Source: Elusimicrobiota bacterium (GTDB taxonomy: Bacteria; Elusimicrobiota; Elusimicrobia; UBA1565). Taken from it: a DNA stretch of 25,804 bases. A program made the translations under genes and the position numbers. The notes under the pieces are model-generated. The model searched no databases, was not told the DNA's origin, and saw nothing but the letters and a program-made list of their open reading frames with translations. The stretch's first letter is position 1, and each line of letters opens with the position of its first letter. This document shows positions 1-24,329 of this stretch, piece by piece. The DNA lies in NCBI GenBank assembly GCA_043819795.1, contig JBDREN010000180.1, positions 1 through 25,804 on the forward strand, in the 5' to 3' direction.

Positions 1-2
1 GG

Positions 3-2482: not shown

Positions 2483-2492
2483 TAGGAATGCC

Positions 2493-4160: not shown

Positions 4161-4238
4161 ACTGTCGGGAGAGCGGCGGACCGCGCCACGTGCGGCCGCC
4201 GCTGTCGGCGGCGACCGGCCGCCGACGGAGGATCTGTC

Positions 4239-5393
4239 ATGGCTGAACCACTGTTCCGGGAGATCGAGCAAGCGCTCGCCCAGACGCGGACGAGGTTCGA
4301 CGGCGTCGCGAAGTTCCTCGACATCCCGGCCAAGCGCGAGGAGATAGAGGTCCGGGAGAAGGAGGCTTCGGATCCCGCGTTCTGGGCGGACTCGTCCGCC
4401 GCGAAGAAAAAGTCCAAGGAGCTTGACGGCTTCCGCAAGCTGGTCGAGGAGTACGAGCAGGCCTCCCGGCTGATCGAGGACGTCGAGGCCCACCTCGAGC
4501 TGGCCCAGGAGGCCGGGGACGCCGGCGAGCTGGGCGAGGTCCGCAAGGCCCTCGATTCCGCCGAGCGGGTGGTCGCGGAGCTCGACACGCGCCTGAAGCT
4601 CTCCGGCGAGTTCGACGACGCGGACGCCATCTTCAGCATCAACGCGGGCGCGGGCGGTACCGAAGCCTGCGACTGGGCCGAGATGCTCCTGCGCATGTTC
4701 ACCCGGTGGGCGGAGCGCCGCGGATTCGAGTTCCGGGTCACCGACCTGCACAAGGGCGAGGAGGCCGGCATCAGGAGCGTCACCGCGTTCGTGCGCGGCT
4801 CCTACGCCTACGGCTACCTGAAAGGAGATGTCGGCGTGCACCGCCTCGTCAGGATCTCGCCCTTCGACGCCAACAAGCGCCGCCATACCTCGTTCGCCTC
4901 CTGCGACATACTGCCCGACATCGAGCAGGAGATCGAGGTCGAGGTCGCCGACTCGGACATCGAGATTGCGACGTTCCGCGCCGGAGGCAAGGGCGGCCAG
5001 AACGTCAACAAAGTGGAGACCGCGGTCCGCATCAAGCACCTGCCCACCGGGATCGTCGTTTCCTCCCGGGCCGAGCGGTCCCAGCACCAGAACCGGATGA
5101 ACTGCATGAGGATGCTGAAGGCCAAGATCTACCAGGTCGAGCTCGACAAGAAGCGCTCGGCCTTGGAAAAGCACTACGATGCCAAGGGCGACATCGCTTG
5201 GGGCAACCAGATCCGAAGCTATGTGTTCATGCCCTATCAGATGGTAAAGGATATGCGCACCGGCCACGAGACGTCCCAGATCCAGAACGTCATGGACGGG
5301 GACCTCGACTCCTTCATGCAGGAGTACCTCGCGTGGCTGGCGGCCGGCAAACCCAATCGCAAGGCCGCCTCCGAGGCTGAAAAGAGCGGGTGA
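4239..5393 (+). CDS. prfB: Peptide chain release factor 2, with no programmed frameshift
   Basis: [23 protein letters not shown] (SPF motif), [17 protein letters not shown] (GGQ), WGNQIRSY; single continuous ORF with GGAGGA RBS. Confidence 0.97.
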
Positions 5394-5539
5394 GTAGCCG
5401 CGAGCTTGTGTAGTGTCCCCGCGACCTCCTCGTCCATTTCGGGGCGAAGGGAAGGATCGCTCTCGCCGTGGCCGACGGCATTTTTCCGAGCCGGCTCCTG
5501 AAATCCGGTCCAAGGGGGCCCCTCCCGAAAACACGGTCA

Positions 5540-5621
5540 TGTAGCAATCGAAATGACATACAATTGTCAAATGCGATATTGACCGCTACAGGTACCGACT
5601 TTCCGGTTCAGTTCCCATAAT
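5540..5621 (+). promoter_or_regulatory. AT-rich putative promoter/operator region upstream of the chorismatase-DAHP synthase pair
   Basis: TGACA-N6-TGTCA palindrome at 5554-5569 overlaps GTCAA-N8-TTGAC at 5566-5583; -10-like CATAAT at 5616-5621; locally low GC. Confidence 0.4.
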
Positions 5622-5788
5622 ATGCTGGCGTCGCCAGCCGGTCCCGCCGATTTCCTTGAGATGTGGCGGGCTAGTGGCCGCGCCCGAAGCGGGGAAGCCT
5701 TTGACGGGGGTTCCGCCGACACCGGAGACGACTTCGGTGCCGATGGGTCCCACTGACCGGCTCTCCTGGGATGAATTTGGGGGATGGC

Positions 5789-7033
5789 ATGAAAAACGAG
5801 ACGATCCGACGTTCTATGCGCAGCGGAATCGACGTCCGCGTGCTGCGGGGGGGGAGCCATACCGAATACTTCCTCACGGCGACCGTGGAGGAGCGCCCCG
5901 CGGAGGGGTCTCCGGAGTCGGTCCGGGCTGTCTTCTCGGACCTGGCCGGCATTCTGCTGGAGGAGGGCATCCAGCCTGTCCGCGAGACGGTCTATGGCCG
6001 CCGGGGCGCCAGAGAAGAGATCCTCGGCGTCCGGAAATCGGCGTATCTGGACCAGGGCATGGATCCCACGCCGCCCGGCGCTTACCTGGACGGGGCGCCA
6101 CCCTGCGGGGCCGAATTCGGGGGAGCGCAGATATGGGGGATAGCTCCCAAAGCCAACGACAAGGCGGCCGTGTCGACCGTGGACTGTCCGGGGGGGCTCC
6201 GGGGGCGCCTGTGGACGGGGAGCGGGTTCCGGTTCCTGCATGTTCCCGCGGTCAGGGGGACCGACGCCGATGGGAGGCTGCCCGCCGGCTGCGCAACGCA
6301 GGCGGAGCGCATGTTCGAGAACGCCCGGGAGGCGGTGGAGTCCCACGGCTTCAAGTACACGAACGTGGTGAGGACGTGGATCTACGTCAGGCGTCTGCTC
6401 GACTGGTACGATGATCTCAATAAAGTCAGGAACGCGCTCTATCAGCGTCCGGGGTATTTCGGCCGGAACGGCTCCCCGCGGTTTCCCGCCAGCACGGGGA
6501 TACAGGGACGCCTCCTCGACGAGGAATGCGTCATGGACGTCCTCGCTTTGGATTGCAACGGGTCGGGCGGGATCGAGGCCAGCCCCATACTCACGACCGC
6601 CAAGCAGGGGCAGGCCTTCTCCTACCGGTCGGCGTTCGCGCGCGGCATGGCGCTGCGGGCCGGCAAGAGGCGCACCATCCACGTGTCCGGGACGGCGAGC
6701 ATCAACGGGGCGGGGGAGACGATCCACAAGACCGACGCTGAGGCCCAGAGCCTGCAGACGCTGATGAGCGTGGCCGCCGTCCTCGAGCAGCAGGGAGCGG
6801 GCCTGGAGAACATCTGCAGCTCCACGGTCTTCTGCAAGGACGTCGAGGCGTACGAGGCGTTCCGCAGGGCCGCGCGCCTCCTGCGCGTGCCGAGGTTCCC
6901 GGCGGTGTTCGTGCTGGCGGACGTGTGCCGTCACGATCTTCTGGTCGAGGTCGAGGCGGTGGCGGTGGTCGGCGGAGGCGCCGCCGCGGCTCGGACCGCG
7001 GACGGACCGGCCGCTGAGGAGGTCCGGAAATGA
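5789..7033 (+). CDS. Chorismatase-like protein (FkbO/Hyg5/XanB2; multi-YjgF/RidA fold)
   Basis: VVRTWIY, YDDLNKVR, PASTGI, SAFARG, VSGTASI and ADVCRHDLLVEVE motifs; ATGA overlap with the DAHP synthase gene; alternative start 5771. Confidence 0.75.
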   Translation: MKNETIRRSMRSGIDVRVLRGGSHTEYFLTATVEERPAEGSPESVRAVFSDLAGILLEEGIQPVRETVYGRRGAREEILGVRKSAYLDQGMDPTPPGAYLDGAPPCGAEFGGAQIWGIAPKANDKAAVSTVDCPGGLRGRLWTGSGFRFLHVPAVRGTDADGRLPAGCATQAERMFENAREAVESHGFKYTNVVRTWIYVRRLLDWYDDLNKVRNALYQRPGYFGRNGSPRFPASTGIQGRLLDEECVMDVLALDCNGSGGIEASPILTTAKQGQAFSYRSAFARGMALRAGKRRTIHVSGTASINGAGETIHKTDAEAQSLQTLMSVAAVLEQQGAGLENICSSTVFCKDVEAYEAFRRAARLLRVPRFPAVFVLADVCRHDLLVEVEAVAVVGGGAAAARTADGPAAEEVRK

Positions 7034-8178
7034 GCCCCTCCAGCGTGGTGGTCACGATCATATGCTTCAAGAACGGGGCCAAGAAGCTGGCCCCGCGGGT
7101 CCTGCGCAGTCTGGGGGTCACGGAGGACGGGGACCATCGCTACCGGTGGCACGCGCCCGGCGTGCTGTCCGTTCATCTGGAGGGGGCGGTCCGCGAGGAG
7201 GCGCTCGATGAGCTGCGCGCTCTGCGCGGGATTACGCGGGTGGTGACCATCCCGCAAGCCCGCGGTTTGGTGCGCCGCGAGGAGGGCCGCCCGGATTCCA
7301 CGCTGACGCTGCCCAACGGAGCCGTGGTGGGCGGCAAGAACGTGGCGGTCATCGCCGGGCCCTGCAGCGTGGAGAGCGAGTCGCAGGTCTGCGAGATCGC
7401 GGCGATGGTCAAAGAAGCCGGCGCCGTGGCGTTGCGCGGGGGCGCGTTCAAGCCGCGGACATCCCCCTACTCGTTCGGAGGGCTCGGCGAGCGCGGTCTC
7501 GAGTGCCTGGCCCTGGCGCGGGAGAAGACGGGGCTCCCGGTGGTCACGGAGGTCATCGACACGGAGGACGTGCATCTGGTGTCGCGCTACGCCGACGTGC
7601 TCCAGCTGGGCTCCCGGAACATGCAGAACTTCCCGCTCTTGTTCAAGGCCGGCAACAACCCGTACGGGAAGCCCATCCTGCTCAAGAGGGGCTTCGGGGC
7701 CACCGTCGACGAGCTGATGCAGGCGGCGGAGTACGTCCTGCTCGGCAGGCTCGCCGCGGGGAGAGAGGGCCCCGGCGTGATCCTGTGCGAGAGGGGCATC
7801 CGTACCTTCGAGACCTCGACCCGCTTCACGCTGGACGTGGGCGCGATCCCCGTCCTCAAGGAAAGGACCCATCTGCCAGTGATCGTGGACCCGAGCCATC
7901 CGGCCGGCGTCCAGAGGTATGTCCCCCCCTTGGCGCGGGCCGCCGTGGCCGCCGGGGCGCAGGGGCTCATGGTGGAGGTCCATATGGAGCCCGCGCGGTC
8001 ATGGTGCGACAAGGGCCAAGCCTTGTCCCCCGGCGCCTTCGCGGAGCTCATGGACGACGTGCGCCGATTGGCCCCCATCGGGATGAAGATGGGCGTCGTC
8101 GCGGGTCCCGGTCGGCGTCGCGGCGAGGCTCCGCTCCGCGGCCGAAACGGCGCCGCGGTCGGGCTCTCCTCGGACTGA
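7030..8178 (+). CDS. aroF: 3-deoxy-7-phosphoheptulonate (DAHP) synthase, type I-beta, with N-terminal regulatory-like domain
   Basis: IAGPCSVES, RGGAFKPRTSPYSF, GSRNMQNF, LLKRG, CERGIRTFE, DPSH and MVEVH motifs. Confidence 0.93.
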   Translation: MSPSSVVVTIICFKNGAKKLAPRVLRSLGVTEDGDHRYRWHAPGVLSVHLEGAVREEALDELRALRGITRVVTIPQARGLVRREEGRPDSTLTLPNGAVVGGKNVAVIAGPCSVESESQVCEIAAMVKEAGAVALRGGAFKPRTSPYSFGGLGERGLECLALAREKTGLPVVTEVIDTEDVHLVSRYADVLQLGSRNMQNFPLLFKAGNNPYGKPILLKRGFGATVDELMQAAEYVLLGRLAAGREGPGVILCERGIRTFETSTRFTLDVGAIPVLKERTHLPVIVDPSHPAGVQRYVPPLARAAVAAGAQGLMVEVHMEPARSWCDKGQALSPGAFAELMDDVRRLAPIGMKMGVVAGPGRRRGEAPLRGRNGAAVGLSSD

Positions 8179-8309
8179 CCGCGCGGTGGCCTCGCTCCGG
8201 GAAAAGGGTCCGCGGGCGATAAAACCCTTGGGAGCGGTTCGGATGACGTCCGCCGGGAGCTCACCGGCGGGGACATCTTTAGGGAAGGCTGCCCTCCTTC
8301 GCCGGAGAC

Positions 8310-8338
8310 TTGCCGACGGGAGACGCGCCGTGTAGGAT
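8310..8338 (+). promoter_or_regulatory. Sigma70-type promoter candidate for the regulator/cytochrome operon
   Basis: TTGCCG-N17-TAGGAT; overlapping palindrome TGTAG-N8-CTACA (8331-8348); a second TATAAT at 8393-8398. Confidence 0.5.
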
Positions 8339-8416
8339 TTTAGCTACAAGAGAATCATGATTACAGCGACAGATATCCCTCAAACCTCCGGGTATAATCC
8401 ATCAAGGATATCCGTG

Positions 8417-9115
8417 ATGAAAGACCATTGCAGAGACTGCCCGGTCGTCAAGACGGGTCTGTTCGCGACCCTCAGACGCTCCTCGAAGTCCGCCGTCTCC
8501 TGTATGATGGTGCACGGCCGCTACAAGAGGCGGCAGATCCTGTATCAGGAAGGGAACCCGTCGTCCCGCGTGTACGCCGTCAAGTCGGGGATGGTCAAGA
8601 TCTATAAGTCCCAGACCTACGGCAAGGACCAGATCATCGACGTGATGGGGCCCGGGGCGGTCTTCAACCTGGAGAGCCTCAGCCTCGGCCGCTGCTCCGT
8701 CTCGGCCGAGGTGCTGGCGGAGTCGGAGCTCTGCTTCGTCGAAAGAGAGCGTCTGGCGAGGCTCCTGGGAGACAACCGGGACCTCGCGATGGAGGTCATC
8801 CGGATCCTGTCCCAATCCCTGGCCGCCTCGCACGACAGGATGCTCGAGTTCGGGACCCAGTCGGCGAAGGCGCGCCTTGCCTCTTTCTTCATCCGCCTGT
8901 TCCCGCTCGTCACGGACGGCGAGGCCTTGACGACCGAGATACGGCTGCCCATCTCCAGGCGGGAGATCGGGGACCTGATCGGGGTCAGCTTGGAGACGGT
9001 CTCGAGGCTGTTCCGGCTGTTGAGCCGGGAGGGGATCGCCTCCGCCAACCACCGGCAGGTGACGATACTCAGCCTTCCGCGCTTGAGGAAGATGGTCGAG
9101 CGGGCGAATCTCTGA
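8417..9115 (+). CDS. Crp/Fnr family transcriptional regulator with N-terminal CxxC
   Basis: cNMP-binding fold (LYQEGNP..VYAVKSGMVK), HTH SRREIGDLIGVSLETVSR (FNR-type E..SR), HCRDC and ELCF cysteines; ORF extends to ATG 8357, but AAGGA before 8414/8417 favours the later start. Confidence 0.92.
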   Translation: MKDHCRDCPVVKTGLFATLRRSSKSAVSCMMVHGRYKRRQILYQEGNPSSRVYAVKSGMVKIYKSQTYGKDQIIDVMGPGAVFNLESLSLGRCSVSAEVLAESELCFVERERLARLLGDNRDLAMEVIRILSQSLAASHDRMLEFGTQSAKARLASFFIRLFPLVTDGEALTTEIRLPISRREIGDLIGVSLETVSRLFRLLSREGIASANHRQVTILSLPRLRKMVERANL

Positions 9116-9187
9116 GGGCCGCCGACCGTCGGCGCGACGTTTCGACTTTACGGTCCGGCGAGGGCCGACGCAGCAGGTGAACCGCAA

Positions 9188-12100
9188 ATGAGGAGACTGA
9201 AGCCCCCGCACCGCGAGCTCCTGATCCGGGGGGGAATCGTCCTGGGGGTGCTGGGCTTGGTGGGCTCCACGGTCCGGGACGCCGCGCGGACCCGCTCGTT
9301 CGACTATTTCAGGGAAAACATCGTCCCCATCCTGGAGACCACCTGCTCGGCCAAGGACGCCGAGGGCAACTACGTATGCCACGGCGGAGACAGGCCCGTC
9401 GCCGACGTCGAGAAGTCGGGCGGCGGGCAATTCACGCACGCGGACGTCAACATGCGCTCGTACACCTGCGAGGCCGCCTGCCACCGCGCGTCCGGGCGGA
9501 AGAAGTTCTCGTTCGCGCTCGACGCCGACGGGAAGATCTCCACCCACCGGCAGGTGATGCTCGCCTACCAGAAGGCGGCGATGCTGGCCGCCTACAGCAG
9601 AAAGTCCTTCGCCAAGCTGTTGCGGATGCCCTTGGGCGCGCTGGCCGGGGGATTCGGGCAGATGCATGTGGGGGGGGAGATCTACGAGAGCGTGAACGAT
9701 CCCGAGTACCGGCAGCTGGCCGAATGGGTCAGGCTGGAGAATCAGGCGATAAAGCCCATGGGCGGCGATGTCGGCGAGGCGCAGCGGTTCTTCGGGGAGA
9801 ACGTGTTGCCGGTATACGCCCGCAACGGATGCCTGAATCCCTCCTGCCACGTCTTCAACCATTCCAGCTTCATCCCGGACAGGGGCATGCCCACCGACGA
9901 CCTCACAATGGAGCTGGCCAAGCGGTTCTCCCCGGAGCAGGTCAGCTTCAACCGCATGACCTCCCTGGGCTTGATCCAGGGCACCGTGCACCTCACGGGA
10001 GACGTCGAGCAGAGCAGGGTCCTGAGGAAGAATATACCCATCGGGAATGGCGGCGTTCTTCACCGGGGCGGCAACGACCAGTTCTTCTCCGGGCCTGACG
10101 ACCCGGATTACAAGACTATCAAGAAGTGGCTCACCCTCGAGCGCGAGGAAGCCGTCTCGAAGCTCAAGATCGATGGGGAGCCGGTCGATCCCTCTCTGGT
10201 GGGCAAGGTCCGGGGCGTGGTCTTCGTGCGCACCAAGACCGGCAACCACCGGCGCTATCTGGACATCGGGAAATACCTGCCGGGCGGGGACCTCTACCTC
10301 CTGAAGCTGAAGGAGGGCGAGACGCTGGAGACGGCGACCGGCGAGCCGGTCAACTTGACGGCACGCTTCCATCCGAAGGGCGAGGCGGATGTCCGGGAGC
10401 CGGACGTGCGCTACGACGGCAGGGGCGTCGCGTTCTCCATGCGCATGGGAGAGCAGGACAACCTGAACGTCTACGAGATCCTCCTGGATGAGGACCTCGA
10501 CTACGTGGAAGGGAGCTTCAGGAGGCTCACCTACGCCCCCAAGCAGGTCAACGGGATGAAGGTGCATTTCACGGACCCGACTTACGTCCCCGACCCGACC
10601 GACGAACACGCCGCCGGCGGCGGGTACAACCTGGAGAAGGCCGACCTGGTCTTCGTCTCGAACCTGGCCGGGGGCGTGGTGCCGAGCGTTAAACGGGGGA
10701 CCGTGGGGGAGGCGGACGGCGGCACTGAGGACACCATCGTGGATTTCGACCGGCCCGAGGCCGACGGGACCTTCATCGGACGGCACGTCTACATCGTCGA
10801 CGGCGCGAACGAAGGGGACTGGAGGAAGATCGTCGGCTTCAAAAACGAGCTCTTTAATCACAAGGGGAAGTCCTCCCTCATGGTGGACCGGCCGTTTGCC
10901 GAGCCCATCGATGATTCCACCGTCTACGTGATCGAGGGCGACGCGGGGTCCCAGCCGGGGTTTCTCCCCTCGTATTCCGTGTACGGGATGAAGATCCCCG
11001 CCCCGGGCGAGGAGAAGCGAATCTACGACGCCACGATTTCGAGGATCACGCACGGCGTGGCGCAGGAGCTGGATCTGAGCGTGAGGACGACGGGCGAGGT
11101 CTTTTACGCGGGCCAGCGGGCCTTCCTCGACAAATACGGCCGTCCCATCTTTCACGTCGGGAGCTGCCGCAGGCATCTCGACACCCGCTTCAGCTTCCCG
11201 ACGCACCACGGCAACCGTTCCCAGGTGCTCGTCTATGCGGACAACAACGAGATGCCCACGGGCATCGACATCCATGTGGGCTTGGACCCCGATAACCTCT
11301 GGGAGGGGGGCAACCTCAGCGTCTCGGATCACCAGTTCGGTCCCGGATTGGAGGCCAGGAACCCGCACGACTACGCCACGGGCTATTTCGACGAGGCCGG
11401 CGTGCCGAGGGCGCGGCCCAAGATCACCAACGTCCGCTACGACTTCGAGAACGGGAAGCAGCCCTCCCACCCCCGCTTCGTATTCAAGAAGAACTCGCTC
11501 TTCCCCCTGCGCGGTCCGACGGCGGTCTCTCGGACGGGCTATTCCCCGGGCGGGATCTTCAGGGATTCCATACCCCTGCCCGATGGCGCTATCCTCGTGT
11601 CGCACTCGCCCGCGCCGATCGATCACCTGGACCCCAAGGCGGACCCGGATTTCGACCTCTACATCCTGCGCGGGGACCCCGGCCTCCAACCCCCGGGGGG
11701 CAAGGGCTTCCCCAAGATCGCGAAAGCCAGGCTCGGCGCGGCCAGCGCCGCGGGCATGAGCGACATCCAAGCCTATCCGATCTACGTCCGGATGAAGCCG
11801 AAGATCAACGCGGCCAATCGTCCCAAGGAGGAGCACCTGATCCGGTATCCGGGCACGCCGGATGACGACGACCGTCCGGCGAAATATCTGGAGAGGAACT
11901 TCCTCCTTATCGACGCCATCATGGACGACCCCTCTCCGGTCGGCAAGCACGCGGCCTTCGACACCGATCCGGTCACGGGAGAGACCGTCCGGGACATCGA
12001 TAAGGTCAGATACGTCAGGATGGTGGAGGTCCTGCCCACGCCTCCGGCTCTCGCCGCCCCGGTGGACCCGTCCAAGACCGCCAACGGCGATCCCACGAGC

Positions 12101-12886
12101 ACTTTGATCTGCAACGGGATCCACCTGAGGAAGCGGATCGTGGGGGAGGCACCCGTGGAGGAGGACGGGTCGATCTTCGTGAGGCTGCCGTCGAAGGTGC
12201 CGATGATCATCCAGACCCTGAACAAGGACAAGATGGCCTTGCGACAGGAGGCGAGGCATTACTTCTTCGCCCCCAACGAGACGTTCACGATCTCGCCGGC
12301 TCCCAGCGAGACCTTCCAGACCTGCGGGGCATGCATGGGAGCCATGTCGGGTAAGCCCGACAGGCTGTTTGGGCCCGTCAACCTGTTCTCGGGGCAGGGA
12401 AAGGTGAAGGCCATCGCCAAGGCCAAGGGCGATCCCCCGGCCTACGGCCTCAAGGTGGAGGACCGGGAGGGGATCGACTTCGTGCGCGATATCCAGCCGG
12501 TCCTCGACCGGCGCTGCGCGGCCTGCCACAACGGCAAGACCCCCCCTAAGGGGCTCCGCCTGACCTCGGGCAAGACCGCCTACTACAACGAGGCCTACGA
12601 GAGCCTCATGCAGCTCGAGGACCCGGAGAGCAGGTGGTACGGGCACAAGAAATACGTCAACGAGCGCGCCGCGCTTGCCATCGAGAGCTATCTGATCGAG
12701 AAGATCTTCGGGAAGGAGCTGCGGGCCCCGCGCAAGCTCACCGGCGACACCCCGCATCCCAGCGGGGGGCTGCTCGCCGGGAGCGGGTTCACGGGCGGTT
12801 CGTTGAGCGAAGAGGAGAGGATGATGCTCGTGCGCTGGATCGATCTGGGCGCGCCTTTCCTGGGAGCGGGAGGAGCCGGGAAATGA
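9188..12886 (+). CDS. Exported multiheme c-type cytochrome with TolB-like beta-propeller and hydrazine synthase alpha (HzsA)-like middle domain
   Basis: N-terminal hydrophobic segment; heme-type motifs CX10CH, CEAACH, CLNPSCH, CGACM and CAACH; propeller blade DVREPDVRYDGRGVAFSMR..NLNVYEI; GEAPVEEDGSIFVRLPSKVPMIIQTLNKDKMAL..APNE (HZS_alpha-like); C-terminal FVRDIQPVLDRRCAACH..LVRWIDLGAP cytochrome. Confidence 0.8.
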   Translation: MRRLKPPHRELLIRGGIVLGVLGLVGSTVRDAARTRSFDYFRENIVPILETTCSAKDAEGNYVCHGGDRPVADVEKSGGGQFTHADVNMRSYTCEAACHRASGRKKFSFALDADGKISTHRQVMLAYQKAAMLAAYSRKSFAKLLRMPLGALAGGFGQMHVGGEIYESVNDPEYRQLAEWVRLENQAIKPMGGDVGEAQRFFGENVLPVYARNGCLNPSCHVFNHSSFIPDRGMPTDDLTMELAKRFSPEQVSFNRMTSLGLIQGTVHLTGDVEQSRVLRKNIPIGNGGVLHRGGNDQFFSGPDDPDYKTIKKWLTLEREEAVSKLKIDGEPVDPSLVGKVRGVVFVRTKTGNHRRYLDIGKYLPGGDLYLLKLKEGETLETATGEPVNLTARFHPKGEADVREPDVRYDGRGVAFSMRMGEQDNLNVYEILLDEDLDYVEGSFRRLTYAPKQVNGMKVHFTDPTYVPDPTDEHAAGGGYNLEKADLVFVSNLAGGVVPSVKRGTVGEADGGTEDTIVDFDRPEADGTFIGRHVYIVDGANEGDWRKIVGFKNELFNHKGKSSLMVDRPFAEPIDDSTVYVIEGDAGSQPGFLPSYSVYGMKIPAPGEEKRIYDATISRITHGVAQELDLSVRTTGEVFYAGQRAFLDKYGRPIFHVGSCRRHLDTRFSFPTHHGNRSQVLVYADNNEMPTGIDIHVGLDPDNLWEGGNLSVSDHQFGPGLEARNPHDYATGYFDEAGVPRARPKITNVRYDFENGKQPSHPRFVFKKNSLFPLRGPTAVSRTGYSPGGIFRDSIPLPDGAILVSHSPAPIDHLDPKADPDFDLYILRGDPGLQPPGGKGFPKIAKARLGAASAAGMSDIQAYPIYVRMKPKINAANRPKEEHLIRYPGTPDDDDRPAKYLERNFLLIDAIMDDPSPVGKHAAFDTDPVTGETVRDIDKVRYVRMVEVLPTPPALAAPVDPSKTANGDPTSTLICNGIHLRKRIVGEAPVEEDGSIFVRLPSKVPMIIQTLNKDKMALRQEARHYFFAPNETFTISPAPSETFQTCGACMGAMSGKPDRLFGPVNLFSGQGKVKAIAKAKGDPPAYGLKVEDREGIDFVRDIQPVLDRRCAACHNGKTPPKGLRLTSGKTAYYNEAYESLMQLEDPESRWYGHKKYVNERAALAIESYLIEKIFGKELRAPRKLTGDTPHPSGGLLAGSGFTGGSLSEEERMMLVRWIDLGAPFLGAGGAGK

Positions 12887-15800
12887 CGGGCCAGAAGCGT
12901 TCCTTGGAGGTCCTTCTGGGGGGGATCATCGTCCTGGTCATCCTCTTCGCCCTCACGCGCTCCGGGACCCAGGCGTTCGTCCCAAATCCGGTCTCGGCTT
13001 TCGCGGAGTCCGGATACAGCAATCCGTCGAAATACGGGATTCTGACCAGCTCCCGATGGGCATACGGGGCCAAATACAAGAGAGAGGACCTCAAGCCGGT
13101 CGCGCCCAACAACCCCCACCCCGAGCCCCAGCCCCACCGGGACCACCCGTGGTACATGGCCATCTCCCCGGACGGGCGGAAGCTCTATGTCTCCCTGGCC
13201 GGCAACGAGGTCCATCCGGGCAGCGAGGTCGCGGTATTCGATACGGCCGCCAAGAAAGTCCTCAAGAGGATCGGAGTGGGCTCGAGCCCCATGCATCTTG
13301 CCTTCCATCCCGGCGGGCGTTTCCTGGTGGTCCTCAACCAGTTCTCCAACTACGCCTCCGTGGTCGACACGCGGACGGATACGGTGGTCTCCGAGATCCC
13401 CCTGGACTTCTACTGCCAGTACATCGTGTTCAACCGGGCTGGGACGCGTGCTTTCGTCAGCAACCGGTACCTGAATCAGGTGTTGGTGGTCGACGTCCGG
13501 GCGGCGGGGGACTCCTTCAAGGGCGGGATGCTGGAGCTGGGGGGCTACGACGACAGCTCCTTCACCGCGGAGGCCGACGGGAGGTCCGGGGTCTACGGGG
13601 CGCTGAACCATTCCTGCGGCGGGACGGAGTGCCACGCCGCCCCCAAGAGCGGCTTCTACGCCGGCAAGGACCGCCTCAAGACTTTCTTCTCGGCCATGAA
13701 CAACTCCGTGCCGGGAGACGCGGACGACAGCGTCCTGCTCCGGGCCGTGCGCTCGGTCAAGGAGGGCGGTTTCGCCGACGACCGCGCCGGCAACAACTTC
13801 CATGCCGAGGGAAGGGTGATCTGGAGCAAGGGCGATTCCGGCTACCGCGCGGTCGCCGGATGGATCGACTCGGCCGGGAGCGGCCCCGGCATCCCCGTGG
13901 GGAACTTTGGGTCCAAGCCGCGCACCCTGTATCTCGGATCGGACGAGAAATACCTCTTCGTGGGCAACCTCGGCACGCAGGACATCTCCATCATCGACGT
14001 GGAGAAGCTGGAGGAGGTCAGCGGCATCTACACCCAGAATCTCGTCACCGACCTGACCATGCATTACGATGAGAGGACGGGCCGGGACCTCCTGATCGCG
14101 CTCTCCATGGGCGTCGGCTTCGGCGCCGCCAAGGAGCGCGATCCCCTCGGCGGGGAGACCGAGGACCCGAACCATGCCGCCGCCCAGTTCACCGTGATCC
14201 GCGACACGGCCACGACCGAGCCCCTGCCCATCGAGAAGCAGAAGGTCCTCGGCCGGTTCGACGCCGTGGACGGCACGGCCGGTTTCAAGATGACGGACAT
14301 CCAGAACGACATCATCGTCGTGGACGCGGGCCGCCTGAATATCCCGCCCAAGCCGGACCGAGGGCGGCTGCGCTACGCGCTCATGGCCAACCGCTATGAG
14401 GCGCACTGGGATTGGGTGCGCTACACCTCGGACTCGGCCGAGATCCTGCCGCAGGACATCAGCGGCGACATCCCGCCCGAGCTCCAGAGGGTGGTGGGGT
14501 CCTTCCCGGAGGGAATCGCCGCGCAGGGGGACAGGCTTTACGTGGCGATGCTCGGCTCCTACGAACTCGTCGAGTACAAGATCGACCCGGCCCCGCGGGA
14601 GGCCTCGGACGTCTTGGAGCCCGTGGCGGTTTATAAGACCGGCATCATGCCCCGGTCCGTGGTCGTGGGTCCCGAGGGAACCTCCGCCGAAGGGAAGGTC
14701 TTCGTCAGCAACTTCCTCGGAGAGACCGTCACTGTCGTCGACCGCCGCACGGGCGAGACGGAGGAGCACGTGGTCGGCGATCTCGCGCGGCCGGTCCCGG
14801 ACACCAACGCGGAGAGAGGCGAGATGTTCGTGATGACGAACATCTTCTCCGCCGATGAGGACACCTCCTGCCAGTCGTGCCACATCTACGGCCTGAGCGA
14901 CGCCAGGGGCTGGGGCGCCGGCCAGGCCATCGCCCAGATGCGCGACGGGAAGTTCGTCAACGGCGGCCTTCTTGCCATCCCGCAGCTCAGGAACCTCTTC
15001 GCGACCCAGCCGTTCTACTTCGAGGGCACGCACACGGCCTTCGACGCGCAGTTCGACGACGCCAGGGAGCACGTCACCCTGCAGGCGTTTTTGGAGCCCA
15101 ATCCCCACGGGGACTTCACGGGCCTCTTCTCCCCGGTCCCGAAAAGCCGGCGAAAGAAGGAGCACGAGGAGATCCAGGACAAGATGTCCACGGCGTCCTG
15201 GGGGGACCTCTACGACGACCTGAGGGAGCGGCGCGACGAGCACACCCGCCGGCGCTCGATGGAGTACTTCGGCAAGGCTTTCAATTTCCGCGACTTCCAG
15301 AGGTTCATCGGCGAGTTCCAGGCCGCGGAGAACCGGCTCATGCCCAATCCCTTCGACCCGCGCAACCCGTCGGTGGCCAGAGGCAAGCTCCTGTTCAACG
15401 ACCTGGGCGTAGGATGCGTGATCTGCCATAAGCCGCCTGAGTTCACGGACAAGGCCGAGATCCTGTACCACAACAACGAGCGGGTGCTTCCCTCCATCAT
15501 CAGCTTCACGCGTAGGGAGAAGGCCTTCACCCTGGTCGGTCCGCACTGGATGGACAGCAGGAACGACCACGTGAGGGACCTGGAGTACTGGGAGACAGGG
15601 CGGGTCGAGCGCAAGGAAGGGAGCGTCACCACATTCCCGCTGAGGGGCCTCTTCGACCGGCCGAGCGCTTTTCTGCACCACGGACGCGCAATGTCCGTCC
15701 TGGAGACGTTCGCCGCGCCCAGTCATTACGCATTGAGACGTTATAAGTACCCGGCCTTGAGAGGGGGCGAGCTTGTCCGCGAGGAGCGCCGCGAGCGGGG

Positions 15801-15921
15801 CTTCAACGAGCTCAGCTTCCTCGAGGAGCGGACGTTCATGATGGACACGCATGGGGGGACCTCGCACCTGAACGTGGTTCAGGCCCGGGACCTGGAGCGC
15901 TTCCTCCTCTCTATCGAATAA
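12883..15921 (+). CDS. Exported YVTN beta-propeller fused to a di-heme cytochrome c peroxidase/MauG-like domain (HzsB-HzsC-like architecture)
   Basis: ATG 12883 overlaps the upstream stop (ATGA) after GGAGGAG; TM/signal; YVTN blades (PWYMAISPDGRKLYV, IGVGSSPMHLAF, VFVSNFLGETVTVVD); ERGE..FSAD..SCQSCH..PQLRNL..QPFYFEG and ARGKLLF..GCVICH..PLRGL..FLHHGRA; extra CGGTECH. Confidence 0.85.
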   Translation: MTGQKRSLEVLLGGIIVLVILFALTRSGTQAFVPNPVSAFAESGYSNPSKYGILTSSRWAYGAKYKREDLKPVAPNNPHPEPQPHRDHPWYMAISPDGRKLYVSLAGNEVHPGSEVAVFDTAAKKVLKRIGVGSSPMHLAFHPGGRFLVVLNQFSNYASVVDTRTDTVVSEIPLDFYCQYIVFNRAGTRAFVSNRYLNQVLVVDVRAAGDSFKGGMLELGGYDDSSFTAEADGRSGVYGALNHSCGGTECHAAPKSGFYAGKDRLKTFFSAMNNSVPGDADDSVLLRAVRSVKEGGFADDRAGNNFHAEGRVIWSKGDSGYRAVAGWIDSAGSGPGIPVGNFGSKPRTLYLGSDEKYLFVGNLGTQDISIIDVEKLEEVSGIYTQNLVTDLTMHYDERTGRDLLIALSMGVGFGAAKERDPLGGETEDPNHAAAQFTVIRDTATTEPLPIEKQKVLGRFDAVDGTAGFKMTDIQNDIIVVDAGRLNIPPKPDRGRLRYALMANRYEAHWDWVRYTSDSAEILPQDISGDIPPELQRVVGSFPEGIAAQGDRLYVAMLGSYELVEYKIDPAPREASDVLEPVAVYKTGIMPRSVVVGPEGTSAEGKVFVSNFLGETVTVVDRRTGETEEHVVGDLARPVPDTNAERGEMFVMTNIFSADEDTSCQSCHIYGLSDARGWGAGQAIAQMRDGKFVNGGLLAIPQLRNLFATQPFYFEGTHTAFDAQFDDAREHVTLQAFLEPNPHGDFTGLFSPVPKSRRKKEHEEIQDKMSTASWGDLYDDLRERRDEHTRRRSMEYFGKAFNFRDFQRFIGEFQAAENRLMPNPFDPRNPSVARGKLLFNDLGVGCVICHKPPEFTDKAEILYHNNERVLPSIISFTRREKAFTLVGPHWMDSRNDHVRDLEYWETGRVERKEGSVTTFPLRGLFDRPSAFLHHGRAMSVLETFAAPSHYALRRYKYPALRGGELVREERRERGFNELSFLEERTFMMDTHGGTSHLNVVQARDLERFLLSIE

Positions 15922-15922
15922 T

Positions 15923-16741
15923 ATGGGCAGAACGGTCTTGATCGTCTTTCTATTGAGCTTGCTGATAGGCCGCTCGTCCATCGGGAGTCCGGGCAAGACC
16001 GAGGCCCGGTACGGCTCCGACATGGTCCTGGTCTCCAGCGGCGTGTTCCGGATGGGCGACGAGCTGAAGCCGGTCCACGTGGACAGCTTCTACATCGACG
16101 CGTACGAGGTGACGAACGCGCAGTACAAGGCGTTCCTGGGCTGGGTGCGGGAGAACTCGGACGAGTCGGTGAGGAGCCCGGACCAGCCTCCCGGCAAGGA
16201 CCATACTCCGCGCTTCTGGAAGCCCTTCAGGCCGGCGCTCCTCAAGAAGACGGGGATGGCGAAGCTGCAGAGGTTCGACGAGGAGACGTTCCGTAAGGAC
16301 GATCACCCGGTGGTCGGGGTCGACTGGTACGACGCCTACGCCTTCGCGAAATGGGCGGGCAAGCGCCTCCCCACGGAGGCCGAGTGGGAGAAGGCCGCCC
16401 GGGGGACCGAGGGCAACGTCTGGCCTTGGGGCGGCACGTGGGATTTCAGTAAATGCAACAGCGGCGGGTACGAATGGAAGGGGGAGCGCGACGGGCACAT
16501 CTATCCGGGACCGGTCAACGGATACCCGGACGGCAGAAGCCCTTACGGCTGCTACAACATGGCCGGCAACGCCTGGGAGTGGGCCGCGGACTCTCCGGAG
16601 GGCGCAAACGGCCCGCGGATCATCAAGGGAGGAGGTTCGAACTCTTATCCGACCTCTGTTCGCGCCGCTTCCAGGAAGGAGTACGAGCCCGGCTTCAGGT
16701 ACTTCAATATCGGTTTCCGCTGCGCGAAGGACGCGGAGTGA
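15923..16741 (+). CDS. FGE-sulfatase (SUMF1/EgtB/PvdO) fold protein, exported
   Basis: Signal peptide; FYIDAYEVTNAQY, HPVVGVDWYDAYAFAKWAGKRLPTEAEWEKAARG, NMAGNAWEW and IGFRC motifs. Confidence 0.92.
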   Translation: MGRTVLIVFLLSLLIGRSSIGSPGKTEARYGSDMVLVSSGVFRMGDELKPVHVDSFYIDAYEVTNAQYKAFLGWVRENSDESVRSPDQPPGKDHTPRFWKPFRPALLKKTGMAKLQRFDEETFRKDDHPVVGVDWYDAYAFAKWAGKRLPTEAEWEKAARGTEGNVWPWGGTWDFSKCNSGGYEWKGERDGHIYPGPVNGYPDGRSPYGCYNMAGNAWEWAADSPEGANGPRIIKGGGSNSYPTSVRAASRKEYEPGFRYFNIGFRCAKDAE

Positions 16742-16746
16742 GGCGT

Positions 16747-17598
16747 ATGCGAGAGATGTCCGTCCTGCTGGCCTCCTGCCTCGCGGTCGCGATCCCATCC
16801 GGGGTCGAGGCCGCCGAGCGGATCGTCTCCAAGGACGGCAAGTATTTCAGCGCGGCCGACGGGATGGAGATGGTGCGCGTGCCGGCCGGCGAGTTCGTCA
16901 TGGGAAGCGACGCGGGCAACTACAACGAGAAGCCCGCGCATAAGGTCTTCCTCGACGATTACCTCATCGATATCCACGAGGTGACGAACTTCCAGTTCGA
17001 GCAGTTCGTGCAGGCCACCGGCTACTTCCCCCAGGGACCCTGGCGGCGCGGCTACGCCCCGGGCGAGGAGACCCATCCCGTTCGGTTCGTCACCTGGCAC
17101 GACGCCCGGGCGTACGCGAAATGGGCGGGCAAGCGGCTTCCCACCGAGGCCGAATGGGAGAAGGCCGCCCGCGGCGCCAAAGGCCTCGTCTATCCCTGGG
17201 GCAACGACTGGAAGCCGCCGCTTCGCGGTGGGGACGCGGCCGACGAGCCGGGACCGGTGGGCTCCTCCCCCGGGAGAGCCAGCCCTTACGGCGTCCTGGA
17301 CATGGGGGGAAGCGTCTGGGAGTGGGTCCAGGACTGGTATGACCGCTACTACTACCGGAGCTTCAAGGGCGGGGAGACGGCGAACAACCCCGCCGGACCC
17401 GAGGACGGCGCCGAGCCGGAGCGGCGCTTCCAGGAGAGCGGGACCGCCGGTGGCAACGAGAGAAGCACCCTGAAGGTCATCCGCGGCGGCGAAGGCAAAG
17501 GCCGGTTCAAGAAGGAAAATTCCAGGACCTCCAAGCGGATGTGGGGCAACCCCAGATACTGGCTCAACGACACCGGCTTCCGCTGCGCCGCCGACTAA
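16747..17598 (+). CDS. Second FGE-sulfatase (SUMF1/EgtB/PvdO) fold protein, exported
   Basis: Signal peptide; MVRVPAGEFVMGS, EVTN, HPVRFVTWHDA..RLPTEAEWEKAARG, DMGGSVWEWVQDWY and TGFRC motifs; start is 16738, 16747 or 16756, not the 16453 ORF start. Confidence 0.92.
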   Translation: MREMSVLLASCLAVAIPSGVEAAERIVSKDGKYFSAADGMEMVRVPAGEFVMGSDAGNYNEKPAHKVFLDDYLIDIHEVTNFQFEQFVQATGYFPQGPWRRGYAPGEETHPVRFVTWHDARAYAKWAGKRLPTEAEWEKAARGAKGLVYPWGNDWKPPLRGGDAADEPGPVGSSPGRASPYGVLDMGGSVWEWVQDWYDRYYYRSFKGGETANNPAGPEDGAEPERRFQESGTAGGNERSTLKVIRGGEGKGRFKKENSRTSKRMWGNPRYWLNDTGFRCAAD

Positions 17599-17603: not shown

Positions 17604-17686
17604 GGTGTCAGGCTTCAACTTATGTAACTTTTGGAACTTATTCTCCAGACAACTCGCAAAAGTTGCATAAGTTGAAGCCTGACACC
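17604..17686. repeat. 83-bp AT-rich inverted repeat (REP doublet/MITE-like)
   Basis: 30-bp arms at 17604-17633 and 17657-17686 are 29/30 complementary (GGTGTCAGGCTTCAACTTATGYAACTTTTG), with a 23-nt loop. Confidence 0.85.
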
Positions 17687-17702: not shown

Positions 17703-18572
17703 ATGAGCTCAAGCGAAGCCCGGAACATGCGCAAGCTCAAAACGATCCTCGTGGTCTTGGCGCTCGCCGTTCCCGGGCCCGTCCTCGCCGCGGCCGAGCC
17801 GGCCGGGCTCGCGGGCAAGGTCGCGATCGTGACGGGCTCCAGCAGCGGGATCGGAAGGGCGCTCGCCTACCGGGCGGCGAAGAGCGGCATGAAGCTCGTC
17901 CTGGCGGACATCGACCTGCCGGGCTCGCAGCGCGTGGCTGAAGATGTGAGAAAGGGCGGAGGGGAGGCCATCGCCCTTCGCGCGGATGTGTCGGTGGAGA
18001 AGGACCGCGAAGCGCTGGTGCGCGCGGCGGTGGAGGCTTTCGGCGGGGTCCATGTCCTGTTCAACAACGCCGGGTACGGGTATATGGCCTCGCAGGAGAA
18101 CATCGCCATGAAGGGCGCGAGGCATCAGTTCGACGTGAATTTCTTCGCGTACGTGGATCTCGCCCAGCGCGTCATCCCGCACATGAAGAGGGCGAAGGGG
18201 GGAACCATCGTCAACGTCGCTTCCGTGCTCGGGCTGACGCCAGGCTCCCCTTTCACCAGCATGTATACGGCCTCGAAGCACGCGGTCGTCGGCTGGGGGC
18301 GGACGATCGCCCAGGAGTTGGAAGATGACGGGATCGCCGTCAAGGTCGTCTGTCCCGCCGGGGTGAAGACGAACTTCCATCGCAACATGAAGGGGAAGGA
18401 CGCCGAGAGCGTCGCGGAGCTGATGCGGGCCGGGTGGAAGTCGATGGCGGAGCCGGAGGACGTGGCCGAGCAGATATTCTCCGGCATGGCGCGGCCCGGC
18501 GTGCTGATATTGCCGCGCGGGGTGGAAGACTACTTGCCCGCAAAGACGCTGGAGGCCCTGGCCGGGGAGTGA
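17703..18572 (+). CDS. Short-chain dehydrogenase/reductase (SDR) with N-terminal signal-like extension
   Basis: TGSSSGIG, NNAG, NVAS and YTASK motifs; AGGAGG RBS; alternative start 17727. Confidence 0.95.
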   Translation: MSSSEARNMRKLKTILVVLALAVPGPVLAAAEPAGLAGKVAIVTGSSSGIGRALAYRAAKSGMKLVLADIDLPGSQRVAEDVRKGGGEAIALRADVSVEKDREALVRAAVEAFGGVHVLFNNAGYGYMASQENIAMKGARHQFDVNFFAYVDLAQRVIPHMKRAKGGTIVNVASVLGLTPGSPFTSMYTASKHAVVGWGRTIAQELEDDGIAVKVVCPAGVKTNFHRNMKGKDAESVAELMRAGWKSMAEPEDVAEQIFSGMARPGVLILPRGVEDYLPAKTLEALAGE

Positions 18573-18689: not shown

Positions 18690-19706
18690 TTACCAGGAAA
18701 GCGGGACCAGGGCGTAGTCGCGATTGAGCAGGGTGTCCCGGTCCCCGCTGACGAACTCCTTGTGCTGGAGGGTGCGCGCCGCCTGACGCGCGAGATCCAT
18801 CCGGCGATCCTGGGAGAGCTTCCGGTACGACGGGTCGCTGTCCTCGATGTACTTCGGCTCGTACCCCGGGTGGCGGATTTTGAGATCGAAGCCGTGGTCG
18901 CGGACCGGCAGGTGCGCCCGGTAGCCCCCGTTGGGGCCCGTCTCGGTCCGGAAGGGCTCCCCGCTCTTGAGGTCCGTGAAGACGACGTCGGCTCCGGACA
19001 CGGGCGCGAGCGTCAACAGGTCGAACACCGTCCCGCGGATCCGCCACTCGTCGTCCTCGGCCTCCAGGCCGCCGGAAGAGGGATCCGGGTGATGGACGCG
19101 CCCCAGGATGATCGGCTCTTCCGGGACGGGAACGTTCCGCGGCGGCTTTCCTTCGGCCGGCTTCCTCGCCTTTATCCGCCGGGCGTCCTTCGCGGAGGCC
19201 TTTTCCGGGGCGGGCTTCTTCGGGGTCAGGGCCGCTAGAGTCGTCGCTCTGATGGCGTCAAGCGTCGGCTCGGGCGCGGCCGCAAGGTCGCGAGCGAGCG
19301 TCACATCGGCCATCTCCGAAGAGGCCTCCGGGTGCGGCGGGGGCGGCGTGCGCAGATAGCGGACCAGCGGGCTTGCGGCGAGGACGGCGACGCAGGCTCC
19401 CGCCGCTACAAGGTAGGGCCAGGGGCTCGGCTTCTTCTTGGTCGGAAAGGAGATGGGCTCTCCGGATGATGCCGACATGAAGCGGGCCGGCGGCGCCTCG
19501 GCCGGCCGACGCGGCTTCGGCGTGGGAGCCGGCCGCGCCTTCGCTCCGGGCTCGGGCCGCGGTTTTGGCTTCTCCGGCTTGTCGGATGGGGGAGAGGGGC
19601 GGGGGCGCTTGCGGACGACCGGGACGCTGAAGTCGCAGCCGCAGAAGGGACAGACCTCGTCGGCCTCGGCGATTTCCTTGGCGCATCCGGAGCAGCGGGT
19701 GAGCAT
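18690..19706 (-). CDS. Zinc-ribbon/TM/carboxypeptidase-regulatory-like domain hypothetical protein
   Basis: CSGC-x10-CPFCG zinc ribbon, Pro-rich linker, one TM (WPYLVAAGACVAVLAA), C-terminal IRGTVFD..PVSGADV..TGPNGGY..IRHPGYEP beta-sandwich; ORF track start is 19745. Confidence 0.75.
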   Translation of the reverse strand: MLTRCSGCAKEIAEADEVCPFCGCDFSVPVVRKRPRPSPPSDKPEKPKPRPEPGAKARPAPTPKPRRPAEAPPARFMSASSGEPISFPTKKKPSPWPYLVAAGACVAVLAASPLVRYLRTPPPPHPEASSEMADVTLARDLAAAPEPTLDAIRATTLAALTPKKPAPEKASAKDARRIKARKPAEGKPPRNVPVPEEPIILGRVHHPDPSSGGLEAEDDEWRIRGTVFDLLTLAPVSGADVVFTDLKSGEPFRTETGPNGGYRAHLPVRDHGFDLKIRHPGYEPKYIEDSDPSYRKLSQDRRMDLARQAARTLQHKEFVSGDRDTLLNRDYALVPLSW

Positions 19707-19839
19707 GTCAATATATTTTCTAGCAGGGGTTTCGGACGATTGCAAGAGCCCTTTGGCACGGACGGCCGGAGATTCGCGCCCGGAAACGCCGACCTCGCGG
19801 GACCTCGCGGCCCCCTCATGGGCCGCGCCTGCGTACTTC

Positions 19840-19868
19840 TTGACAGGTTCCGGGGCGCATGTTACACT
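19840..19868 (+). promoter_or_regulatory. Sigma70 promoter
   Basis: TTGACA-N17-TACACT with extended TGn, about 20 nt upstream of the GGAGG RBS and ATG 19890. Confidence 0.7.
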
Positions 19869-19889
19869 CCACCGAGGGAAGGAGGGAAC

Positions 19890-20588: not shown

Positions 20589-20631
20589 GCGCGAACGGCG
20601 GGGACCAAGGTCCTCTCTCGAAAGACAATAA

Positions 20632-20662
20632 GGAAGGCCTCCCGAAGCTTGGGAGGCCTTCC
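20632..20662. terminator. Hairpin, putative bidirectional terminator
   Basis: GGAAGGCCTCCC-GAAGCTT-GGGAGGCCTTCC between convergent genes; followed by TTATT on the minus strand. Confidence 0.65.
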
Positions 20663-20690
20663 CTCTATGAGTGTGTCGCCGCCGCCGGGA

Positions 20691-22682: not shown

Positions 22683-22713
22683 TCTTGGTGACCTCTTCGC
22701 TGTTTGTCTTGAC

Positions 22714-23397: not shown

Positions 23398-23468
23398 CGT
23401 TATCCTCCGTGACCTGTTGGCGCACCCGTGGGCCCGGAGGGCCGGGTGGTGCTCGGTCGTCTTGACGG

Positions 23469-24327: not shown

Positions 24328-24329
24328 CG

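Follow-up and report, generated by a model that had tools for sequence, protein, structure and literature searches.

A 25,804-nucleotide stretch of DNA from an Elusimicrobiota bacterium (assembly GCA_043819795.1, contig JBDREN010000180.1, positions 1 to 25,804 of the forward strand; hereafter the window) encodes two adjacent haem proteins, A and B, that resemble the subunits of anammox hydrazine synthase (HZS). We found that the pair is a distinct variant of a known, functionally unexplained HZS-like kind, and that it has lost the HZS active-site residues that we tested. The genes lie in a conserved cluster with a chorismatase-like Rid-fold protein, a DAHP synthase and two FGE-like proteins, which leads us to suggest, tentatively, that the complex may act on or through a hydroxybenzoate. 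The pair itself is encoded as follows.

9188-12886, + strand: protein A, HZS-alpha-like, predicted to be exported, 1232 amino acids (aa)
12883-15921, + strand: protein B, fused HZS-beta/gamma-like, predicted to be exported, 1012 aa

Homology of A and B to hydrazine synthase

The stop codon of A and the ATG of B (12883) overlap as ATGA, and each protein begins with a hydrophobic stretch (best 15-residue hydropathy 2.3 in A and 3.3 in B), in agreement with an earlier reading of this DNA from its sequence alone, which had described a coupled pair of exported haem proteins. That sequence-only reading placed the two genes correctly but took 9188-15921 as the whole unit; the conserved unit is 5771-17598. 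The GEAPVEEDGS...VP..IQTL motif is present in A, and the HZS_alpha match predicted for about 12000-12340 was found at A residues 940-1032 (window 12005-12283), with 41.3 bits against a Pfam cut-off of 26.6 (E 2.4e-10). A sequence search of the PDB with A at E<=0.1 returned a single match, HZS alpha (5c2v_A, E 1.8e-17), which a profile search recovered at E 7.9e-32. The propeller of A had been called TolB-like: no TolB or PD40 Pfam match was found on A, but its propeller region alone matched the HzsA propeller with 92% profile probability (two controls, 0.2% and 0.4%).

For B, sequence matches were YVTN propellers and HZS beta. As a 70-sequence profile against the PDB, B matched an archaeal YVTN surface-layer protein first and then HZS beta (E 6e-22), and it matched HZS gamma (5c2v_C) at E 2.5e-8. 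Of the YVTN propeller and CCP/MauG-like domain proposed earlier for B, the propeller thus stood and the second domain was supported by the HZS gamma profile, but not by Pfam CCP_MauG, which fell under threshold (18.9 versus 25.6 bits). A feature search of the ESM Atlas led from B to propeller/di-haem clusters and from the N-terminus of A to unnamed or cytochrome c clusters. Finally, we compared both proteins by hhalign with 12 HzsA, 5 HzsB and 9 HzsC references from true hzs operons, drawn from a 351-genome Planctomycetota sample in which 16 genomes scored above the NCBIfam cut-off. A scored 99.9% with HzsA (from its residue 338 on), and B scored 98.9% with HzsB and 97.6% with HzsC. Judged by sequence, A and B are homologous to HZS alpha and to fused beta/gamma along both chains and in the same domain order, as had been proposed.

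Loss of the residues that define hydrazine synthase

We took the HZS-defining residues from two published studies (PMC12758564, PMC12607021). According to these, Tyr591 is the proximal ligand of haem alpha-I; an equivalent after the alpha-I motif is absent in all 31 A-family rows. The alpha-I motif itself reads CxxCM in A instead of CxxCH: the position of His587, which binds zinc in HZS, is Met in all 34 close relatives in which the site can be read (of 37 rows, 3 are incomplete), and CxxCH is kept in 13/13 rows of a sister subtype. The region of the zinc ligand alpha Cys303 aligns poorly in A, and this Cys is not universal even among anammox bacteria (PMC12758564). On the gamma side, His144 is replaced by Phe713 in B (Phe, Leu or Tyr across the family), and Cys165, the third thioether in HZS, has no counterpart among the seven Cys of B (178, 245, 250, 663, 666, 845 and 848). 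The alignment around the distal acid Asp168 is blurred by an insertion; Glu729 of B, invariant in 70/70 rows, may fill its role. The gamma-II ligand His332 corresponds to His990 of B and is kept in at least 90% of rows.

Family models and trees gave a similar picture. NCBIfam scores reached at most a tenth of their cut-offs (hydrazine_alpha, 72 versus 800; hydrazine_BC, 40 versus 1250; hydrazine_beta, 53 versus 560). In a quick alpha tree, calculated without locus L055 (its cut motif was not found) and with L065 mislabelled, the HzsA clade (support 100) is separate from the A-family clade (99); in a quick gamma tree, which carries a long-branch warning, the HzsC clade (99) is separate from the B clade (100). 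A and B thus fall outside the HzsA and HzsC clades, in keeping with the earlier decision not to claim anammox for this host. The HAO family (PF13447) and a separate HzsC gave no match in the 90%-complete genome, a weak negative since the HAO control was also silent.

Compared directly with Kuenenia HZS (PDB 5C2V/5C2W), the pair shares the alpha order of propeller, middle domain and cytochrome, the beta/gamma order of propeller and di-haem domain, four haem motifs at equivalent places, the gamma-II His ligand and export signals; in Scalindua, beta and gamma are also fused, as in B. It differs from the Kuenenia enzyme in its CxxCM motif, in the loss of Tyr591 and gamma Cys165, in the change of His144 to Phe and in three extra cytochrome repeats (CX10CH/CX3CH, CX4CH and CX4CH). 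It further differs in its gene order, alpha then beta/gamma, in its non-anammox host and in overall sequence (about 24-26% identity in aligned columns). The pair as read here is not a hydrazine synthase and is predicted to make no hydrazine. The N-N chemistry that had been listed among its possible reactions finds no positive support, given the loss of those HZS active-site residues that we examined. HZS_alpha domain matches alone should therefore be used with caution as anammox markers in surveys; at the same time, the role of non-anammox HZS relatives bears on the origin of anammox.

Haem motifs and domain anatomy

We found five candidate haem motifs in A and three in B, for up to 8 haems, arranged as follows.

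A, extra N-terminal cytochrome repeat 1: C53-x10-C64-H65 with H160; inserted C94-x3-C98-H99 with H84
A, extra N-terminal cytochrome repeat 2: C215-x4-C220-H221
A, propeller: from about aa 338
A, middle domain (alpha-I site): C1046-x2-C1049-M1050
A, C-terminal cytochrome: C1110-x2-C1113-H1114 with H1190
B, YVTN propeller with inserted cytochrome repeat: C245-x4-C250-H251 with H307
B, di-haem domain: C663/C666/H667 and C845/C848/H849, with H990
B, distal pocket: Phe713 at the Trp/His144 position; Glu729 invariant

The two N-terminal domains of A and the insert in the B propeller are homologous repeats (pairwise 96.6-98.3%), and they provide candidates for the extra electron-transfer haems that the sequence-only reading had proposed. 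The C-terminal cytochrome of A matched the first A repeat (95%) and the B insert (93%), but not the second A repeat (4%). H160, H307 and H1190, each a late His in a similar motif, are likely the sixth haem ligands. The haem motifs of A and B are at least 90% conserved in close relatives, and their spacing ranges from CX2CH to CX10CH among relatives, which favours their interpretation as haem sites. The unusual haem-binding motifs of this lineage (CxxCM, CX10CH, CX4CH) are kept at 52-68% identity across several phyla. A ResB/CcsA-type maturation locus is present in the host genome, and one related cluster (L018) includes ResB and CcsA genes itself.

The di-haem domain of B also resembles bacterial cytochrome c peroxidase (bCCP), MauG and BthA (PF03150), with two CxxCH motifs at matching positions. 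B differs from bCCP and MauG in scoring under the Pfam cut-off, in having His as sixth ligand of its second haem and in its propeller fusion. The position of the inter-haem Trp (MauG Trp93) is Phe713 in B, whereas Trp is present in the other beta/gamma-like groups shown; B forms its own long-branch clade, apart from these Trp-keeping proteins. BthA likewise lacks the inter-haem Trp, yet it manages high-valent chemistry (PMC6405878). In its distal pocket, B has Gln723 at +10 from the Trp-equivalent (in the T1 subtype only, described below) and Ala at the Pro position; its invariant Glu stands at +16, compared with +20 in bCCP and MauG, and is a candidate distal acid.

Relation to published HZS-like operons

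HZS-like pairs outside anammox, the main point of the sequence-only reading, are already in print. In 2023, Suarez et al. reported Phycisphaerae operons in which an hzsA-like gene precedes a fused hzsBC-like gene, and postulated a broader family acting on other substrates (PMC10732223); Hagglund et al. (2025) assigned such operons to clades I-IV and rejected hydrazine synthesis (PMC12758564). Like A and B, these operons have an alpha-like gene before a fused beta/gamma-like gene, extra haems and no Tyr591. Clades I-III differ from the A/B family in having Trp at gamma-144 and FG-GAP neighbours; the A/B family has Phe followed by a 50-residue insertion, a cytochrome inserted in the propeller, longer proteins (B about 1000 aa, A about 1230 aa) and FGE, chorismatase and DAHP synthase neighbours, a comparison that does not extend directly to clade IV sequences (PMC12758564). 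In the supplement of that paper, six locus-tag prefixes of named members of our family gave one match, to another gene of 656 aa, and its Elusimicrobia beta/gamma-like rows span 591-647 aa. This suggests, short of proof, that PMC12758564 does not cover the A/B lineage. Its supplement has 0 matches to 'chorismat', and among the papers listed by our searches, in a library with few subscription papers, none links HZS-like genes to chorismatase or DAHP synthase. Its CxxCM and long-spaced haem motifs, the missing inter-haem Trp and a cluster pointing to a testable small molecule make this lineage valuable.

Distribution and cluster layouts

A has 36 relatives at 52-68% identity, followed by a gap. 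B gave 217 matches, of which the best 120 show 44-70% identity along almost the whole protein; the groups among the matches listed are Elusimicrobiota, Deltaproteobacteria, Myxococcales, Planctomycetes, Verrucomicrobiota and Bacteroidetes. The family is nonetheless rare and patchy: it occurs in 4/401 genomes of the host phylum, 3/251 Planctomycetota and 6/251 Myxococcota (centre genome included in each), and about eight full-length 50% clusters stand for it among 1.84 billion proteins.

We grouped 63 B loci at 95% identity into 52 non-redundant groups. Where at least 600 bp of upstream DNA was present, 36 of 39 B genes were preceded by an alpha-like gene (22) or by a second, Trp-keeping beta/gamma-like gene (14); where at least 1 kb was present downstream, an FGE-like gene followed in 34/37. 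Three layouts and a variant emerged. T1, the window type, has A (CxxCM), B and two FGE genes, often with Rid, DAHP synthase and Crp genes. T2 has A' (CxxCH), B', FGE, an ApbE-FGE fusion (8/13) and a pentahaem cytochrome (9/13), with Rid in 0/10 loci that have enough flank. T3 lacks alpha and consists of a beta/gamma-like gene, B', two FGE genes, Rid and DAHP synthase. In the fourth variant, A and B are joined by a pentahaem gene in 2/3 cases. These arrangements indicate that B is the core, that A is replaceable and that the accessory set alternates.

Several loci showed peculiarities. At L015 (6263-9918) the A gene is split into two open reading frames (ORFs), and FGE and Rid genes lie on another contig. 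Remains of a second cluster copy were also seen: an intact B paralog, 91% identical in amino acids (G000:C201:3543-6629, L241), with 179 synonymous versus 93 non-synonymous codon differences from B, is preceded by about 43 bp resembling the end of A, and a short A piece stands beside a frameshifted FGE1 piece at G000:C133:26055-26498 (L242). At L059 (8788-12489), B is followed by a single 1233-aa frame with FGE, ApbE, RnfD-like and NuoF-like domains, which sequence errors may have merged; these domains tie the cluster to membrane electron transport.

A chorismatase-like protein and a DAHP synthase in the cluster

Upstream of A, the window encodes two cytoplasmic enzymes.

5771-7033, + strand: two-domain Rid-fold protein, chorismatase-like (FkbO/Hyg5/XanB2 fold), cytoplasmic; Pfam Ribonuc_L-PSP x2
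7030-8178, + strand: type I-beta DAHP synthase; NF006421, 390 bits (cut-off 335); ATGA-coupled to the Rid gene

The best PDB match of the Rid protein was Hyg5 (5ag3, E 9.4e-7). It resembles Hyg5, FkbO and XanB2 (TIGR04444; PDB 5AG3, 5A3K) in its Rid-derived fold, its PASTGI, SGTAS and DVCR..L.E.E motifs and its equivalents of Hyg5 Gly240, Cys327 and Glu334. It differs in lying far under the family cut-off (TIGR04444, 62.9 bits versus 325) and outside any polyketide or aryl-polyene cluster; chorismatase activity is predicted. Among 57 Rid rows, collected with a profile that itself includes the scored active-site columns, the equivalents of Gly240, Cys327 and Glu334 are G307 (57/57), C386 (56/57) and E393 (57/57), and R220, Y285 and R291 are present in 57/57. 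An Arg, a Tyr and a further Arg serve in the active site of Hyg5/FkbO chorismatases, and the Gly240/Cys327 pair in Hyg5 reportedly governs product choice towards the aromatic product, a result ascribed to Hubrich in 2015. Glu334 of Hyg5 is the catalytic acid (PMC7170507); the product of Hyg5 is 3-hydroxybenzoate, that of FkbO a dihydrodiol (PMC4685789).

The DAHP synthase is the third copy in the genome, and the two other paralogs are about 48% identical. In a tree, seven cluster copies from two phyla and one Rid-linked copy form one clade (SH-aLRT 99), apart from the host genome's two own paralogs. Rid occurs in 9 and DAHP synthase in 6 of the 52 non-redundant B loci, many of which are short of flank. 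Both are present at two further loci (L118, L227), and in G025 both lie divergently upstream of A; in two genomes with B elsewhere, Rid is immediately 3' of FGE1. At the genome level, two-domain Rid was found in 7/8 T1 genomes (G000, G025, G041, G042, G044, G045 and G800, but not G043), in 2/3 T3 genomes and in the untyped G009, against a baseline of 27/251 and 30/251 genomes sampled in two phyla. We considered whether Rid presence tracks CxxCM: this is true within the A family and fails beyond it, since the alpha-less subtype and genomes with CxxCH alpha-like genes of other clades have Rid.

A reverse survey started from 54 Rid loci out of 502 genome slots, with three profile-building genomes and three second copies left out. 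An HZS-like alpha or beta/gamma gene lies near 12/54 (11/25 Planctomycetota, 1/29 Myxococcota), several within 4-39 bp; DAHP synthase occurs at 6/54, and a DHOR di-haem gene with a porin at 2/54. Because 19 kb amounts to about 0.4% of a 5-Mb genome, chance adjacency of Rid and HZS-like genes is unlikely. In a quick Rid tree, the HZS-neighbour label clusters weakly. The Rid family plainly has other contexts as well. In two Myxococcota (L230:7853-13309, L232:6059-11456), DAHP synthase, DHOR (PF06537), chorismatase-like Rid and porin genes form one run, that is, the same aromatic module next to a different di-haem family. Elsewhere Rid accompanies DUF1553/DUF1549/DUF1501 modules (6 loci: L182, L185, L188, L193, L225, L226) or exported beta-helix and TPR proteins (7 loci: L214-L220). 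With respect to aromatic metabolism at large, the L118 cluster adjoins aroA and aroK/aroB; the host genome has chorismate synthase and one UbiA-family gene away from the cluster, and futalosine-pathway MqnA/D was not found in it.

FGE-like proteins

Two FGE-like genes follow B.

15923-16741, + strand: FGE-sulfatase-like protein 1 (FGE1), predicted to be exported; Pfam PF03781, E 2.8e-51
16738-17598, + strand: FGE-sulfatase-like protein 2 (FGE2), predicted to be exported; Pfam PF03781, E 2.3e-50

FGE2 may start at GTG 16738, overlapping the FGE1 stop, or at ATG 16747. The catalytic Cys pair of FGE is absent, the segment being Cys-free in FGE1 (by alignment) and FGE2 (by sequence). FGE1-type protein is fused to ApbE in the sister subtype; in the window, none of the eight proteins tested contains the ApbE target motif DxxS/TGAS/T. 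PDB matches of FGE2 include FGE and PvdO. PvdO, an FGE-like protein in the periplasmic oxidation of an aromatic ring, the catechol chromophore of pyoverdine (PMC6206403), is likewise an exported FGE fold without catalytic cysteines, but the similarity is weak (E 1e-10 and 2e-5), true FGE scores higher and no siderophore genes lie near the window cluster.

Proposed function and alternatives

We hypothesize, at somewhat less than an even chance, that A and B form a periplasmic, HZS-shaped multihaem oxidoreductase for which a hydroxybenzoate made from chorismate serves as co-substrate or mediator. The features behind this proposal that the sequence shows are the export signals, up to 8 haem-c motifs, the HZS domain order, the conserved cluster and the intact active-site residues of DAHP synthase and chorismatase. 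Aromatic oxidation was one of several options named in the sequence-only reading; it is now favoured by the linked chorismatase-like protein, the dedicated DAHP synthase and the two FGE-like proteins, which that reading did not include. Two small cytoplasmic enzymes, easy to express, thereby predict a small molecule to offer to the haem complex.

In this scheme, the dedicated DAHP synthase would raise shikimate flux and the Rid protein would cleave chorismate to hydroxybenzoate, most likely 3-hydroxybenzoate because of the Hyg5-type Gly/Cys pair. The hydroxybenzoate would then reach the periplasm, although the cluster holds no transporter. There, the extra His-ligated cytochrome repeats and haem gamma-II would carry electrons to or from haem gamma-I, which is probably five-coordinate and, with Glu729 as distal acid, would activate a small oxidant (H2O2 or NO); the host's qNor and many multihaem proteins make NO or peroxide plausible co-substrates. 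The activated species would oxidise or couple hydroxybenzoate, either at gamma-I or at the alpha-I haem with its altered CxxCM motif, giving a metabolite or redox mediator. The FGE-like proteins might serve as binding or electron-transfer partners, on the PvdO precedent, and the chorismatase-free subtypes would use pentahaem cytochromes and ApbE instead.

Several observations weigh against this proposal. The similarity to Hyg5 is weak (E 9e-7, with TIGR04444 far under cut-off), so that the Rid protein could have another substrate and another product. Among the conserved neighbours we recognised no transporter, ligase or prenyltransferase, and B lacks the inter-haem Trp that MauG and bCCP use for high-valent chemistry. 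Two-domain Rid was found in 0/5 T2 or fourth-variant (CxxCH) genomes, nor was it found in one genome of the alpha-less subtype; these Rid-free genomes with B indicate that the haem complex can work without Rid. Conversely, for 42/54 Rid loci the retrieved DNA, short in some cases, showed no HZS-like gene nearby, and the genomes in which the two co-occur are kin rather than independent.

The closest competitor, which we rank below the aromatic proposal and regard as rather unlikely, is a reductase of H2O2, NO or hydroxylamine (bCCP- or HZS-gamma-like) that serves detoxification or respiration in the periplasm, with Rid and DAHP synthase supplying a quinone precursor or being loose passengers. 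It would account for the His ligation of gamma-II as in HZS (H990 = His332), for Gln723 standing 10 residues past the Trp-equivalent as in bCCP/MauG, for the Crp/Fnr regulator in the cluster, for the pentahaem cytochrome (9/13) and ApbE (8/13) of T2 loci, for qNor in the host and for the existence of Rid-less subtypes. It leaves unexplained the repeated tight coupling of Rid/DAHP synthase to di-haem genes of several unrelated clades and the two FGE-like proteins; in addition, no UbiA was recognised in any cluster, and the inter-haem Trp and the Pro107 equivalent are missing in B.

A MauG/MbnH-like maturase, in which B would oxidatively modify a partner (an FGE-like protein or A) or attach an aromatic cofactor in the propeller, is doubtful. 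Propeller oxidoreductases often bind small cofactors, B has the di-haem fold of the bCCP/MauG superfamily and an FGE-like gene stands 3' of B in 34/37 loci; however, the distal ligand of the second haem is His rather than Tyr and Phe replaces Trp93, both of which are features tied to the bis-Fe(IV) chemistry of MauG (for Trp93, PMC6405878). We give equally little weight to a metal (iron) acquisition module, with hydroxybenzoate as chelator or reductant that the haem complex matures or recycles. Rid and DAHP synthase do flank DHOR di-haem and porin genes at L230 and L232, an Rrf2 regulator precedes Rid in L120 and PvdO offers a precedent (PMC6206403), but the conserved neighbours included no recognisable TonB-dependent receptor or ABC transporter, and an 8-haem enzyme would be an iron-costly route to iron.

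There is also an outside chance that the two-site logic of HZS persists with a swapped acceptor: gamma-I would reduce NO to a hydroxylamine-level species, and the CxxCM alpha-I haem, without the Tyr phenolate, would put N on hydroxybenzoate by amination or nitrosation. If true, the family would show the ancestral chemistry behind hydrazine synthesis as well as a new type of haem attachment. Finally, a true but divergent hydrazine synthase, forming the N-N bond from NO and ammonium, is very improbable: the full HZS domain order speaks for it and Suarez et al. raised the idea for other HZS-like operons (PMC10732223), but none of Tyr591, His587, gamma His144 and gamma Cys165 is retained, NCBIfam scores are 72/800 and 40/1250, A and B lie outside the HzsA and HzsC clades, and HAO-family and separate HzsC matches are lacking, the last being weak for the reason given above.

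Regulator, possible control elements and flanks

The remaining features of the cluster concern its possible control.

8357-9115, + strand: Crp/Fnr-family regulator with N-terminal CxxC; Pfam cNMP_binding and HTH_Crp_2
5554-5569: perfect 16-bp palindrome (5 + 6 + 5), about 200 bp upstream of the Rid gene; overlaps the sole sigma-70-like site found

Crp genes also occur in clusters L018 and L118. An FNR-box search gave 2 matches versus 3.3 expected, none near the cluster start. The palindrome, a possible operator, occurs exactly at 2 places in the genome, where about 1.3 would be expected, and upstream of 10 related clusters no site was found that matches it with at most 1 mismatch.

Housekeeping genes lie on both sides of the inserted cluster (1-5393 and 18690-24860: secA, lnt, prfB, H+-pyrophosphatase, rplK, nusG), with an L1-like ORF, identified by eye, at 22714-23397. 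On the 3' side of the cluster lies a short-chain dehydrogenase/reductase (SDR) gene at 17703-18572 whose product has a signal peptide-like N-terminus; we rejected it as part of the conserved unit, as one partial SDR occurs in 62 other loci. Antisense ORFs at 8402-12757, 12688-16023, 5567-6934 and 3051-5570 were likewise set aside as shadows, since the two tested have no Pfam match and none passes the codon-usage filter. Between FGE2 and the SDR gene, at 17604-17686, we found an inverted-repeat element of about 85 bp, REP- or MITE-like, which recurs in full or by half on about ten other contigs. Between secA and lnt (2221-2508), several imperfect head-to-tail repeats are seen as a repeated peptide.

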